Shown: one piece after another, positions 1,742 through 6,527 of the stretch
Layout: each line of letters begins with the position of its first letter
Position numbering within the stretch: position 1 is the first letter of the stretch
From: a virus
Lineage: Duplodnaviria; Heunggongvirae; Uroviricota; Caudoviricetes
IMG/VR virus record: IMGVR_UViG_2585427789_000025
DNA: 8,979 bases
Strand: one strand, 5' to 3'
Made by a program: the position numbers and the translations under genes
Notes under the pieces: generated by a model
The model's input: only the letters and a program-made list of their open reading frames with translations
Databases searched by the model: none
Told to the model about the DNA's origin: nothing

Positions 1742-2746
1742 ATGAGTAAAGTCTTTATTTGCGCCGCCATTCCGGACGAACAGGCAATAAAGGAAGAAGG
1801 TGCAGTCGCTGTAGCCACTGCCATTGAAGCCGGCGACGAACGTCGCGCCCGTGCCAAATTTACCTGGCAATTCCTGGAGCAATATCCGGCTGCTCAGGAC
1901 TGCGCTTATAAATTTCTTGTCTGCGAGGATAAACCCGGCATGCCCCGCCCTGCCATCGACTCCTGGGATACCGAATATATGCTGGAAAACCGCTGGGATG
2001 AGGAAGGCGCTTCCTTTGTCCCGGTCGAACCAGAATCCGATCCGATGATCGTCAATTTTGACAAGCTGTCCCTTGAAGTACAGAACGCGGTCCTGGTTAA
2101 GTTCGGTACATGTGAAAACATCACCGTTGATATGGTGATTAGCGCGCAGGAATTGTTGCAGGAAGACATGGCAACATTCGACGGACATATCGTTGAAGCG
2201 TTGATGAAAATGCCAGAAGTTAACGCCATGTATCCGGAGCTTAAGCTGCATGCCATCGGGTGGGTTAAGCATAAATGTATTCCTAGTGCCAAATGGCCCG
2301 AAATTCAGGCAGAGATGCGCATCTGGAAAAAACGTCGCGAAGGTGAACGCAAGGAAACCGGAAAATACACGTCTGTTGTTGATCTCGCCCGCGCCAGAGC
2401 CAATCAACAGTACACTGAAAATTCAACAGGAAAAATCAGCCCGGTCATTGCTGCCATTCATCGCGAATACAAGCAGACATGGAAAACACTGGATGACGAA
2501 CTGGCCTACGCTCTCTGGCCTGGTGATGTGGATGCCGGAAACATTGACGGCAGCATCCATCGCTGGGCAAAAAATGAAGTTATCGACAACGACCGCGAAG
2601 ACTGGAAGCGTATCTCGGCATCGATGCGCAAACAGCCTGATGCCCTTCGCTACGACCGCCAGACTATTTTTGGCCTTGTCCGTGAGCGTCCGATCGACAT
2701 TCACAAAGATCCTGTGGCACTGAACAAATATATTGCGAATACCTGA
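1742..2746 (+). CDS. Hypothetical acidic protein, 334 aa (prophage accessory protein of unknown function)
   Basis: Long ORF with TGAGG about 12 nt upstream of ATG 1742 and a hydrophilic, Asp/Glu-rich translation. The antisense ORFs 1715-2407 and 1906-2292 are shorter and Phe/His/Cys-rich, so judged spurious. No catalytic motif recognised. Confidence 0.7.
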   Translation: MSKVFICAAIPDEQAIKEEGAVAVATAIEAGDERRARAKFTWQFLEQYPAAQDCAYKFLVCEDKPGMPRPAIDSWDTEYMLENRWDEEGASFVPVEPESDPMIVNFDKLSLEVQNAVLVKFGTCENITVDMVISAQELLQEDMATFDGHIVEALMKMPEVNAMYPELKLHAIGWVKHKCIPSAKWPEIQAEMRIWKKRREGERKETGKYTSVVDLARARANQQYTENSTGKISPVIAAIHREYKQTWKTLDDELAYALWPGDVDAGNIDGSIHRWAKNEVIDNDREDWKRISASMRKQPDALRYDRQTIFGLVRERPIDIHKDPVALNKYIANT

Positions 2747-2766
2747 CTACAAAGGGCGTGTTTGAG

Positions 2767-3111
2767 ATGAAGGAAGAGATCTGGGCGCTGTTGATGTTCT
2801 CTCGTCGTCAGTACCAGAAACTGATGCAGTGGAAACGGGTATCTGATATCGCAAAAACTGAATGCGCGGTGGAAGTTGAACCATCTGTAGAGCGTGAGGG
2901 GCCGTTCTATTTCCTCTTCGCCGATAAGGATGGCGAAAAATACGGTCGCGCAAACAAACTTTCTGGTCTGGATAAGGCGCTGGCTGCTGGGGCTACTGAA
3001 ATCACGAAAGAAGAATATTTTGCCCGCAAAAATGGTACATACTCGGGTTTACCGCAAAATGTTGGTGCCTCTGAAGACCGCACAGCCAGAGCCGGTAAAA
3101 GTTACCGCTGA
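2767..3111 (+). CDS. Hypothetical protein, about 114 aa (start at ATG 2767; alternative GTG 2758)
   Basis: Frame 1 ORF begins 21 nt after the stop of the upstream gene, with AAGGG about 10 nt upstream of ATG 2767. Composition is protein-like. Its 3' end overlaps the 5' region of the downstream exonuclease frame. Confidence 0.55.
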
Positions 3112-4207
3112 CGAAGTAAACAAAATTATGCAGGCAGCCAATATCAGCCAGCCTGACGCCGATAAGTTGCTTGCTGCATCACGTGGTGAATTTGTTGAAG
3201 GGATTAGTGACCCGAATGATCCGAAATGGGTTAAGGGGATCCAGACCCGCGATTCTGTGAACCAGAACCAGCATGAATCGGAACGGAACTACCAGAAAGC
3301 GGAACAAAACAGCCCAAATGCGTTACAAAACGAGCCAGAAACGAAACAGCCTGAACCAGTGGTGCAACAGGAAGTGGAAAAAGTCTGCACCGCCTGCGGT
3401 CAGAGCGGTGGTGGCAACTGCCCTGATTGTGGTGCGGTGATGGGCGACGCAACATACCAGGAAACATTCGATGACGAGTATCAGGTTGAAGTTCAGGAAG
3501 ATGATTCGGAGGAAATGGAAGGCGCTGAACATCCACACAAGGAGAATGCTGGCGGCGCTCAGGATCACGCTAGCGATAGTGAAACTGGCGAGACGGCAGA
3601 TCACCCAATTAAGGTGAACGGTCATCACGAAATCACATCCACCAGCAGGACGTGTGACCATCTAATGATCGACCTTGAAACCATGGGAAAAAATCCTGAT
3701 GCCCCGATCATCTCAATAGGTGCAATATTTTTCGATCCGCAAACCGGAGATATGGGACCGGAATTTAGTAAGACTATCGATCTGGAAACTGCTGGCGGAG
3801 TCATTGATCGGGACACCATTAAATGGTGGCTTAAGCAATCACGCGAAGCGCAATCTGCCATTATGACCGATGAAATCCCGTTAGATGATGCACTGTTACA
3901 ATTGCGGGAATTTATCGACGAAAACTCCGGTGAATTTTTTGTTCAGGTCTGGGGAAATGGAGCCAACTTCGACAACACGATTTTGCGCCGTTCATACGAA
4001 CGGCAGGGGATCCCCTGCCCGTGGCGTTACTACAACGATCGCGATGTACGCACAATCGTTGAGCTGGGGAAAGCCATAGACTTCGATGCCAGAACGGCTA
4101 TTCCATTCGAAGGTGAGCGCCATAATGCACTTGATGACGCTCGTTACCAGGCAAAATACGTTTCAGCTATCTGGCAAAAACTGATCCCGAGTCAGGCTGA
4201 TTTTTAA
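3059..4207 (+). CDS. DEDDh-type 3'-5' exonuclease (DnaQ-like fold) with a disordered acidic linker and a CxxC-x7-CxxC zinc-ribbon; start codon uncertain
   Basis: The C-terminal roughly 190 aa carries the three exonuclease motifs in order: MIDLETMG (Exo I, D-x-E), [13 protein letters not shown] (Exo II) and [10 protein letters not shown] (Exo III, H-x4-D). Upstream lie a Q/E/P-rich low-complexity stretch and [16 protein letters not shown]. The track ORF starts at 2894, but its first 55 codons are Arg/Ser/Trp-rich junk lying over the frame-1 gene. No in-frame ATG (3032, 3059, 3128) has a convincing RBS. Confidence 0.7.
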
Positions 4208-4265: not shown

Positions 4266-4469
4266 ATGAGCAGCTTATTTTTAACCGAAGATGAATTGCT
4301 AATATTAACGGGCTGCAAATATGCAAGCCACCAGCGAAAATGGTTAATGGAAAACGGGCTTCCGTTCTATACCAATCGTAGTGGCAAACCGATTGTCAGC
4401 CGGGATCTATTTACCTGCAATAAAACTTTACCACCACGCGAGGTAGAGCCGAATTTTGGTGCGATCTGA
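4266..4469 (+). CDS. Excisionase-like small DNA-binding protein (resembles the DUF4224-type proteins found next to phage integrases), 67 aa
   Basis: Sits immediately upstream of the integrase, and its stop overlaps the integrase start (TGATG at 4467-4471). The family call is from memory of the conserved N-terminal pattern, not from a search. Confidence 0.6.
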   Translation: MSSLFLTEDELLILTGCKYASHQRKWLMENGLPFYTNRSGKPIVSRDLFTCNKTLPPREVEPNFGAI

Positions 4470-5494
4470 TGGGAAGACGAAGGAAAAATCCTGAACACGA
4501 AAAATTACCTCCAAATGTATACCCAAATAAATATAGTTATGTATGGAAACCAACATCCAGAGAATCTGTCACACTAACCGCCATCAAGGATGGTTTAGCT
4601 GCTTTATGGAAAAAGTATGAGGAAACTGTAAATAATCGCGATCGTGCAATGACATTCGGTCGCTTGTGGGAAAAATTCCTCGCCAGCGCCTATTACAGTG
4701 ACCTTAGTCCAAGAACACAAAAAGATTATCTGCAACATCAAAAAAAGTTGCTTGCCGTATTCGGTAAGGTACCAGCGGATTCCATAAAACCAGAACACAT
4801 CCGTCGATACATGGACAAAAGAGGGGAGCAGAGTAAAACGCAAGCCAACCATGAAAAAAGCAGTATGTCCCGTGTTTACAGTTGGGGGTATGAGCGAGGG
4901 TACGTGAAGGCTAACCCATGTGCAGGTGTAAGTAAATTCAAGGCCAAAAACCGCGAACGATATGTAACCGACAAAGAATACCAGGCAGTATTAAGCGTTG
5001 CACCTCTTCCTGTTTTTATCGCAATGGAAATTGCCTATCTGTGTGCAGCGAGGGTTTCCGATGTGTTATCGCTGAAATGGGAACAGATTGGAAACGACGG
5101 GATATTCATCCAGCAAGGGAAAACCGGAAAAAAACAGATAAAAGCATGGAGTCCACGATTACAGGCAGCGATCGAAAAAGCAAAACAGTTGCCAAAATCT
5201 GCCTATGTGATCAGCAATCAATACGGCAACCGATATATGTACAAAGGCTTTAACGAAATGTGGGTAGATGCAAGAAATCGTGCTGGAAAAATTTCAGGTA
5301 TTTTAACCGACTTCACCTTTCATGATCTGAAGGCGAAAGGAATTTCAGACTATGAAGGAAGCAGCCGGGATAAGCAACTTTTCTCTGGTCACAAAACCGA
5401 AGGGCAAGTGCTAATCTATGACAGGAAGGTTAAAGTTTCACCAACACTTGATGTCCCGTTACCTGAAAATATTCCAAGAAAATATTCCAAGTAA
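4469..5494 (+). CDS. int: Lambda-family tyrosine integrase, 341 aa
   Basis: N-terminus MGRRRKNPEHEKLPPNVY resembles the lambda Int arm-binding N-terminus (MGRRR...LPPN.Y). Catalytic-domain blocks align by eye to lambda Int: AARVSDVLSLKWEQI (Arg I), GKTGKK (Lys), FHDLKAKGISDYE (His with Lys in the Arg II position), SGHK (His) and LIYDR (Tyr). The gene ends 52 bp from the 3' end of serU. Confidence 0.9.
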   Translation: MGRRRKNPEHEKLPPNVYPNKYSYVWKPTSRESVTLTAIKDGLAALWKKYEETVNNRDRAMTFGRLWEKFLASAYYSDLSPRTQKDYLQHQKKLLAVFGKVPADSIKPEHIRRYMDKRGEQSKTQANHEKSSMSRVYSWGYERGYVKANPCAGVSKFKAKNRERYVTDKEYQAVLSVAPLPVFIAMEIAYLCAARVSDVLSLKWEQIGNDGIFIQQGKTGKKQIKAWSPRLQAAIEKAKQLPKSAYVISNQYGNRYMYKGFNEMWVDARNRAGKISGILTDFTFHDLKAKGISDYEGSSRDKQLFSGHKTEGQVLIYDRKVKVSPTLDVPLPENIPRKYSK

Positions 5495-5501
5495 TTCCAA
5501 G
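5466..5501. repeat. Three direct copies of ATTCCAAG (5471-5478, 5484-5491, 5494-5501) spanning the integrase stop codon; candidate arm-type Int binding sites
   Basis: The first two copies sit in a tandem 13-bp unit AAAATATTCCAAG. They lie between the integrase coding end and the tRNA 3' end, where P'-arm sites lie in lambda attL. Confidence 0.3.
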
Positions 5502-5546
5502 TGTGATTTTTGTCACTGACTTAATGATGTGTAAGTGATTGAATTT

Positions 5547-5636
5547 TGGCGGAGAGAGGGGGATTTGAACCCCCGGTGGAGTTGCCCCCACTCCGGTTTT
5601 CGAGACCGGTCCGTTCAGCCGCTCCGGCATCTCTCC
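5547..5636 (-). tRNA. serU: tRNA-Ser (anticodon CGA), 90 nt with long variable arm
   Basis: Reverse complement of 5547-5636 reads GGAGAGATGCCGGAGCGGCTGAACGGACCGGTCTCGAAAACCGG...GGGGGTTCAAATCCCCCTCTCTCCGCCA. It has an acceptor stem, anticodon loop CTCGAAA (anticodon CGA), a class II variable arm and a 3' CCA. Confidence 0.9.
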
Positions 5637-5729
5637 GTTCAGATGGTTGCCATGATGCCAGGAAATTTGGCATTTTAACAGTCCCTGTCCGTGCAATTTT
5701 GTTCAAGTGACGAGTTTGCGAGCAAAACG

Positions 5730-6527
5730 ATGATTAAGTGGCCCTGGAAAGTACAAGAATCAGCACATCAAACTGCCCTTCCCTGGCAGGAAGCACTATC
5801 GATCCCCCTTTTAACGGGTCTGACGGAACAGGAACAAAGCAAATTAGTCACTCTTGCCGAACGTTTTTTACAGCAAAAGCGGCTTGTTCCTTTACAGGGC
5901 TTTGAACTGGATTCATTAAGAAGCTGCCGGATAGCACTTCTATTTTGCCTACCCGTTCTGGAGTTAGGACTGGAATGGCTGGATGGTTTTCATGAAGTCT
6001 TAATTTATCCTGCGCCATTTGTGGTCGATGATGAATGGGAAGACGATATCGGTCTGGTGCATAACCAACGTATTGTTCAGTCAGGTCAGAGCTGGCAGCA
6101 AGGGCCTATCGTTTTGAACTGGTTGGATATACAAGATTCTTTTGATGCTTCTGGTTTTAACCTGATTATTCATGAAGTCGCTCATAAGCTGGACACCCGT
6201 AACGGCGATCGCGCCAGCGGAGTTCCCTTTATTCCGTTGCGTGAGGTTGCTGGCTGGGAACACGATCTTCATGCTGCAATGAACAACATTCAGGAAGAAA
6301 TCGAATTGGTTGGCGAGAATGCGGCGAGCATTGATGCTTATGCTGCCAGTGATCCTGCTGAATGTTTTGCCGTACTTTCTGAATATTTCTTTAGCGCCCC
6401 AGAACTTTTTGCTCCTCGTTTCCCTTCATTGTGGCAACGTTTCTGCCAATTTTATCAACAAGATCCTTTGCTGAGACTGCATCACGCTAATGATACAGAC
6501 TCGTTTTCGGCGACGAATGTTCATTAA
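5730..6527 (+). CDS. mtfA: Mlc titration factor A (MtfA/YeeI), 265 aa
   Basis: The translation from ATG 5730 ([29 protein letters not shown]...) matches my recollection of E. coli MtfA, including the HEVAH zinc-peptidase motif. The track ORF from 5691 is an upstream extension of the same frame. Confidence 0.88.

Follow-up and report, generated by a model that had tools for sequence, protein, structure and literature searches.

The integrase gene (int) of the window, by which we mean the whole 8,979-nt stretch of DNA that was analysed, most probably (about 85%) codes for a working tyrosine integrase of the lambda type, which belongs to a lambdoid Sp14/CP-933U-type prophage in serU of Escherichia coli and whose Lys288, found at the position of the second catalytic arginine (Arg II), is native to the enzyme and no lesion. 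This residue is shared with the integrases of ST64B, Sp14 and ZF40 and, more distantly, with those of Dobby and Smp131. Across the lineage, Lys at Arg II is a synapomorphy, stable and under selection, that unites a large clade of tRNA-targeting integrases paired with a DUF4224 excisionase.

The int product is a lambda-type tyrosine integrase

The int gene lies at 4469-5494 on the plus strand and encodes a protein of 341 amino acids, identified by Pfam, an AlphaFold2 model and 97% identity to the Sp14 integrase ECs_2773; the translation of 4469-5491 contains TDFTFHDLKAKGISDYEG. PF00589 matches residues 183-317 with 44.7 bits against a cut-off of 27.1 (E 1.7e-11), and PF22022 and PF14659, which represent the central and SAM-like N-terminal domains, match residues 62-154. 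The AlphaFold2 model, built with 65 homologues, has a pLDDT of 96.1, with a three-stranded sheet and a helix at residues 17-58 and the catalytic Tyr at a helix end. Structurally, the model comes closest to full-length lambda Int (TM 0.69) and to the 75-356 fragment of the same protein (TM 0.79-0.80), followed by XerA, Tn1549 Int, IntI, XerH and Cre; the Foldseek probability is 1.00 for lambda Int, Tn1549 Int, IntI, XerH and Cre. Moreover, the alignment with lambda Int begins at residue 1 (MGRRR..LPPN.Y), and the PDB search returned no solved structure closer than lambda Int (E 1e-12; profile 6.5e-26). The domain matches and the fold match with lambda Int therefore indicate a three-domain, heterobivalent integrase of the lambda type.

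The int product is thus a member of the tyrosine recombinase/phage integrase superfamily (PF00589). One feature of the superfamily, an Arg at the Arg II position, is missing, the position being occupied by Lys288. This does not exclude membership, because membership is a matter of homology, fold and nucleophile, and natural members with Lys have already been counted. By analogy, from the recombinant serU junction described below and the published excision of Sp14 and ST64B, the enzyme would be expected to carry out attP x attB integration and attL x attR excision.

Lys288 occupies the Arg II position

The active site of the protein reads R195-D198-K218-H285-K288-H308-Y317. On the plus strand, the codon of R195 (Arg I, lambda R212) is at 5051-5053, that of the general-acid K218 (lambda K235) at 5120-5122, that of H285 (His II, lambda H308; CAT) at 5321-5323, that of K288 (lambda R311; AAG) at 5330-5332, that of H308 (His III, lambda H333) at 5390-5392 and that of the nucleophile Y317 (lambda Y342) at 5417-5419; D198 aligns with lambda D215. 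R195 and K218 are invariant in the alignments, and Y317 is invariant in 65/65 and 121/121 sequences. The preliminary description had held that the catalytic residues other than Arg II appear to be present, and R195, D198, K218, H285, H308 and Y317 are indeed all in register with lambda Int. The predicted active-site pentad is the variant R-K-H-K-H.

An ungapped alignment made by eye had earlier placed a Lys at the position of lambda R311, and this placement is borne out by phmmer, MAFFT and hhalign alike. A phmmer comparison with the lambda Int PDB chains (E 1e-12) puts K288 opposite R311, and MAFFT puts it in the R311 column both with 120 close and with 150 distant homologues. With hhalign, a 65-sequence profile aligned to lambda Int with a probability of 99.4%, FTFHDLKA lying over PTFHELRS, so that profile alignment with the catalytic domain leaves K288 over R311 and puts no different residue at Arg II. 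All three alignments are gap-free between H285/H308 and K288/R311 (window/lambda). Residues 282-297 are FTFHDLKAKGISDYEG in translation, with F282 starting at 5312; the Lys codon had been given as 5329-5331, which is one base too far to the left, since these three bases are GAA and span two codons. The description of the substitution as unusual agrees with the survey of more than 12,000 tyrosine recombinases by Gibb et al. (2010), in which Arg II is Arg in 99.1% and Lys in 0.5% (PMC2943603).

Excisionase, tRNA target and att site

The xis gene (4266-4469, plus strand) encodes a 67-aa DUF4224 protein (PF13986, E 1.9e-15; PHROG 1266 'excisionase', E 3e-21), that is, an excisionase or recombination directionality factor, and its stop codon shares one base with the ATG of int. 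In 78/80 related loci, the Lys-type int is likewise immediately preceded by a DUF4224-like ORF; this constant pairing supports an excisionase-family role for the protein in the Lys clade, as judged from gene order. DUF4224 proteins also partner the Lys-type integrases of P2-like Pseudomonas phages. The Xis proteins of Sp4 and Sp14 were considered probably non-functional by Asadulghani et al. (2009) (PMC2669165).

Downstream of int lie serU, encoding tRNA-Ser(CGA) on the opposite strand, and then mtfA, asnT and yeeJ. An opposite-strand tRNA whose 3' end lies 15-144 nt past the int stop codon is present in 48 of the best 80 related loci (Leu-TAA 32, Ser-TGA 8, Ser-CGA 6, Leu-CAA 1 and Cys 1), and a further 9 of the 80 have an opposite-strand tRNA 0.4-2.6 kb from int. 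The varied tRNA types indicate that the target specificity of the Lys clade has diversified, and a module kept intact across at least five tRNA targets points to an active lineage.

The serU gene of the window (5547-5636, minus strand; ARAGORN) is a host/phage hybrid, as seen from its alignment to the K-12 and Sp14 junctions. The att boundary was located by aligning the window with the empty K-12 site and with both Sp14 junctions. The segment common to phage and host occupies 5532-5607 and matches the far end of Sp14 (L008 3128-3204), where it is duplicated. From the anticodon loop to the 3' end, serU is supplied by the phage. It carries the phage-type bases G at 5578 and C at 5589, against A and T in K-12, which form a compensated G-C stem pair where K-12 has A-U, so that the serU tRNA can still fold after integration. 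The two phage-type bases place the putative crossover in ACTCCGGTTTTCGAGACC (5590-5607), which is the serU anticodon stem-loop. With 97% identity, the same int-proximal junction and insertion at the serU anticodon stem-loop, int belongs to the serU-targeting Sp14/CP-933U group.

Three direct copies of ATTCCAAG, found by exact-match count, start at 5471, 5484 and 5494 (5471-5502, plus strand), with start-to-start spacings of 13 and 10 bp, and overlap the last codons and the stop codon of int. There are no other copies on either strand of the window, where 0.27 copies were expected and 3 were seen. The repeats, which are about 90-125 bp from the crossover, are kept in Sp14, and the other end of Sp14 has inverted copies, one exact and one with a single mismatch (L008 3311 and 3245). 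The three copies are plausible candidates for the arm-type Int-binding sites of the int-proximal att arm.

Two further genes of the window have been altered. Upstream of xis, a gene for an ExoVIII-type exonuclease with a C-terminal Rv2179c-like 3'-5' exoribonuclease domain (1742-4207, plus strand) is frame-disrupted: relative to the 823-aa Sp14 protein, residues 1-332 (1742-2737) and 450-823 (3083-4204) share a frame, residues 333-447 (2737-3078) are in another, and small indels are located near 2734, 2766, 2838 and 3077. The disruption suggests that this prophage copy is decaying outside its integration module, sequencing errors being less likely. On the host side, yeeJ, the gene of an inverse autotransporter adhesin (6979-8463), has an internal deletion of about 4.4 kb that joins nt 1-34 of K-12 yeeJ (L092 96-129) to nt 4412-5770 (L092 4507-5865) at 99.85% identity. 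What is left of yeeJ ends abruptly at 8463; in the remaining 8464-8979, an ORF that starts at 8542 encodes an HTH_Tnp_1 transposase domain (insertion sequence).

Lys at Arg II is conserved and under selection

Close homologues share the residue without exception, with Lys in 121/121 of the sequences that are 55% or more identical. In a library clustered at 50% identity, 137 of the 150 best representatives have a residue in the column, which is Lys in 95, Arg in 39 and another residue in 3. In a neighbour-joining tree built with the Lys/Arg column masked and lambda Int as root, there are two Arg-to-Lys changes and no reversal, with Lys clades of 70 and 9 sequences; Lys thus appears to have arisen once or twice without reversal. 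The motif HD[LI]KAK[GAS][IV][ST], which selects for Lys by design, was searched for in a single genome of each species and matched 345 loci from Enterobacterales, Aeromonas, Pseudomonas, Vibrionales and Alteromonadales. In the best 80 of these loci, all from different species, Lys is encoded 44 times by AAA and 36 times by AAG. An Arg codon is one transition away from either, so the amino acid has been held while the codon drifted. Moreover, int is under strong purifying selection (dN/dS 0.02-0.05), the value for the window gene being 0.045 against the Sp14 int and 0.023 against two other alleles.

The strongest association with the Lys state was found for Cys192 (5042-5044, in the motif LCAAR), three residues before Arg I. 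The residue is Cys in 69/79 Lys-type sequences and Thr in 34/36 Arg-type sequences as well as in lambda Int. Cys192 could be compensatory or merely a clade marker: the Lys/Arg split matches the clade structure, and the Cys/Thr co-variation is therefore not independent evidence of compensation.

Alternative explanations for Lys288

The alternative that survives best, although improbable, is that K288 is a bystander and another basic residue does the job of Arg II, just as a downstream Arg replaces Arg I in IntDOT, which offers a precedent (PMC8138268). The Lys clade does have nearly invariant basic residues, including K290 and R319, and some basic positions (27, 112, 143 and 302) co-vary with the Lys/Arg state. 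However, K290 and R319, the Arg two residues after the Tyr (Y-D-R-K), were rejected as compensating residues, since both are also present in Arg-type relatives and so are not specific to the Lys clade. As to the co-varying positions, lambda Int itself has a Lys aligned with 302, and the others lie in the arm- and core-binding domains and follow clade membership. A clade-specific substitute Arg was sought among the homologue alignments and the co-variation, and none was found. In addition, the invariance of K288 is hard to square with a bystander, and Lys at Arg II works in Cre and in vaccinia TopIB (PMC2943603).

Even less probable is the view that Lys is the sign of a dead or impaired integrase, left in a defective prophage with vertical inheritance only, a loss of recombinase activity also considered in the preliminary description. 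It would fit the near-universal Arg of the superfamily and the disrupted exonuclease gene of this prophage, as well as the report that Sp14 excises poorly and is not packaged (PMC2669165). It is contradicted by a Lys that stays fixed throughout the clade under synonymous codon turnover across at least 80 species, by the low dN/dS, by tRNA att sites with at least five different targets, and by relatives that excise or lysogenise: Lys is present in ZF40, Dobby and Smp131, which are isolated temperate phages, as well as in ST64B and Sp14, which are prophages that excise.

That Lys288 is an artefact, either a misalignment or a base-call error at AAG, is hardly credible: it could appeal to the one-base slip in the codon coordinates given earlier, but the three alignment methods agree on an ungapped H-x-L-K/R motif, Lys is present in every close homologue, and many independent complete E. 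coli genomes contain the 1.5-kb xis-int-serU stretch with 100% identity. This stretch has 318 records of at least 99% identity, and 1094/5426 complete E. coli genomes (about 20%) carry at least 80% of it, including the junction.

Proposed mechanism and the chemistry of Lys at Arg II

A functional integrase with a native Lys288 is therefore the preferred reading, and the enzyme would work as follows. The N-terminal domain would bind the three ATTCCAAG repeats as arm-type sites, and the core-binding and catalytic domains would bind the serU anticodon stem-loop. Y317 would attack the scissile phosphate, with R195, K218, H285 and H308 acting as in lambda Int. The epsilon-ammonium group of K288 would provide positive charge and a hydrogen bond to the non-bridging phosphate oxygen, a contact normally made by Arg II, and Lys would lack the second contact of Arg, that to the tyrosine oxygen. 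Because of this missing contact, religation may be slower, as in Cre R292K, unless residues that evolved together with Lys make up for it. The excisionase would be the DUF4224 product of the gene immediately before int. The integrity of the int sequence and the behaviour of Sp14 suggest that the very copy in the window is active.

The chemistry assumed here draws on work with Arg-type enzymes. Arg II forms hydrogen bonds to two oxygens, a non-bridging one and that of the tyrosine, and modelling suggests that Lys can make the first contact, yet that neither contact is optimal (PMC2943603). Cre R292K retains activity in vivo as well as in vitro, but of all the single mutants it accumulates the most covalent intermediate (PMC2943603), a build-up that indicates slow ligation. 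Vaccinia TopIB R223K retains about 10% of its activity, and XerC/D are cited as well (PMC2943603). These two mutants have the same substitution at the same position as Lys288; they are, however, single mutants of enzymes adapted to Arg, whereas Lys is ancestral to the clade of the window integrase. The Lys clade would accordingly have had time for co-evolution around Lys, for example the Cys in place of Thr three residues before Arg I. By analogy with the mutants, the activity or kinetics of the window integrase may possibly differ from those of the Arg type. The 2021 family classification discusses departures at Arg I and His II, and Lys at Arg II is absent from it (PMC8138268). In the literature searched, we found no Lys-clade enzyme that had been purified or mutated at the Arg II position.

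Significance of the Lys-type integrases

In conservation, Arg II is often put on a level with the tyrosine nucleophile, and the clade indicates that it is replaceable by Lys over long evolutionary time. The Lys type extends over at least about 95 clusters at 50% identity, and the clade provides natural material for testing the second guanidinium contact to the tyrosine oxygen. For annotators and for predictors of prophage activity, an incomplete R-H-R triad is no ground to score this integrase as inactive; about 20% of complete E. coli genomes carry the enzyme, which also occurs in effector-carrying prophages of EHEC such as Sp14. A more far-reaching idea is doubtful, namely that the Lys-type integrases represent a natural, ancient and successful R-K-H-K-H-Y chemistry in which the ligation step so impaired in Cre R292K may have been repaired or retuned by co-evolved second-shell changes, such as the Cys in place of Thr before Arg I. 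If it were true, measurable differences in cleavage/ligation kinetics, or covalent intermediates that persist for longer, would be expected of the clade, which would then be a ready-made system to dissect the role of Arg II.

Comparison with known systems

The closest characterised relative is Sp14 (= CP-933U) of E. coli O157:H7 Sakai, whose integrase ECs_2773 is 97% identical, differs by 10 amino-acid changes including a one-residue deletion, and shares the FHDLKAKGISDYEG motif (HDLK). Sp14 also has the same xis-int-serU-mtfA-asnT order, an identical int-proximal junction and identical ATTCCAAG repeats; its exonuclease is annotated as a single 823-aa ORF, whereas that of the window is frame-disrupted. 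Asadulghani et al. judged the integrases of Sp4 and Sp14 to be intact and detected circular excised (attP) forms of both prophages after mitomycin C, those of Sp14 in low amounts and only after induction; Sp14 was not packaged (PMC2669165). According to the annotation of the ST64B record, a similar integrase is named for CP-933M (Sp4, also in Sakai). With Sp4 and its reportedly similar integrase in the same strain, cross-catalysis of Sp14 excision is possible.

Only one phage record has an identical integrase, Escherichia phage vB_EcoS-689R5 (ON470583.1; Int 100% identical). This 'partial genome' includes the host genes serU, mtfA and asnT and a second integrase gene beyond att. What was deposited is either prophage DNA together with flanking host sequence or a fragment that was transduced or wrongly delimited, rather than a cleanly packaged genome. 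ON470583 was therefore rejected as proof of excision, since the record includes host flank.

Other relatives with Lys at Arg II belong to phages of different hosts. Two of these integrases, Sb28 of Salmonella phage ST64B (59% identity) and gp02 of Pectobacterium phage ZF40 (50% identity), contain HDLKAKG and have an excisionase gene immediately before their own; ZF40 was derived from an induced lysogen. Excision of ST64B in S. Typhimurium has been quantified by attP qPCR, and the same 2025 study credited reintegration partly to a second host integrase, IntA (PMC12455584). The P2-like integrases of Smp131 (Stenotrophomonas) and Dobby/D14A (Pseudomonas) likewise have Lys at Arg II (HGLK and HDLK, respectively); they differ in belonging to Peduoviridae and in their greater length (380-392 aa), and the D14A integrase is distant (about 27% identity). 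D14A and Dobby have a DUF4224-type excisionase gene upstream of int. Smp131, like the prophage of the window, targets a tRNA gene, although that of a Thr tRNA; its attL and attR were cloned from a lysogen, and the authors found only 4/5 pentad residues (PMC3931495). The missing residue corresponds to the Lys in HGLK. The integrase of phiCTX, which is used in mini-CTX vectors, had been suggested as a Lys-type enzyme by the HDLK of Citexvirus D14A; it was dropped because tblastn with the D14A integrase did not recover phiCTX.

Lambda Int (PDB 1Z1B, 1Z1G and 5J0N), the best PDB match of the window integrase in both sequence and structure, has the same three-domain heterobivalent architecture, with R, D, K, H, H and Y in register. 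The two differ in sequence (about 22% identity), in having Arg311 and Lys288, respectively, and in target, which is a tRNA anticodon loop for the window integrase, whereas lambda integrates at attB between gal and bio. IntDOT of CTnDOT is another active tyrosine recombinase with a natural departure from the R-K-H-R-H pentad (PMC8138268). In IntDOT, which is without Arg I, an Arg from elsewhere in the chain substitutes, whereas the window integrase swaps Arg II conservatively in place.

These comparisons reveal no novel type of system. The window integrase is in essence that of Sp14/CP-933U, Lys had already been tabulated as a natural residue at Arg II (PMC2943603), and the pentad gap had been noticed in Smp131 (PMC3931495). 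The addition made here is a modest one: Lys at Arg II is recognised as a stable, selected trait of a tRNA-targeting, DUF4224-paired integrase clade.
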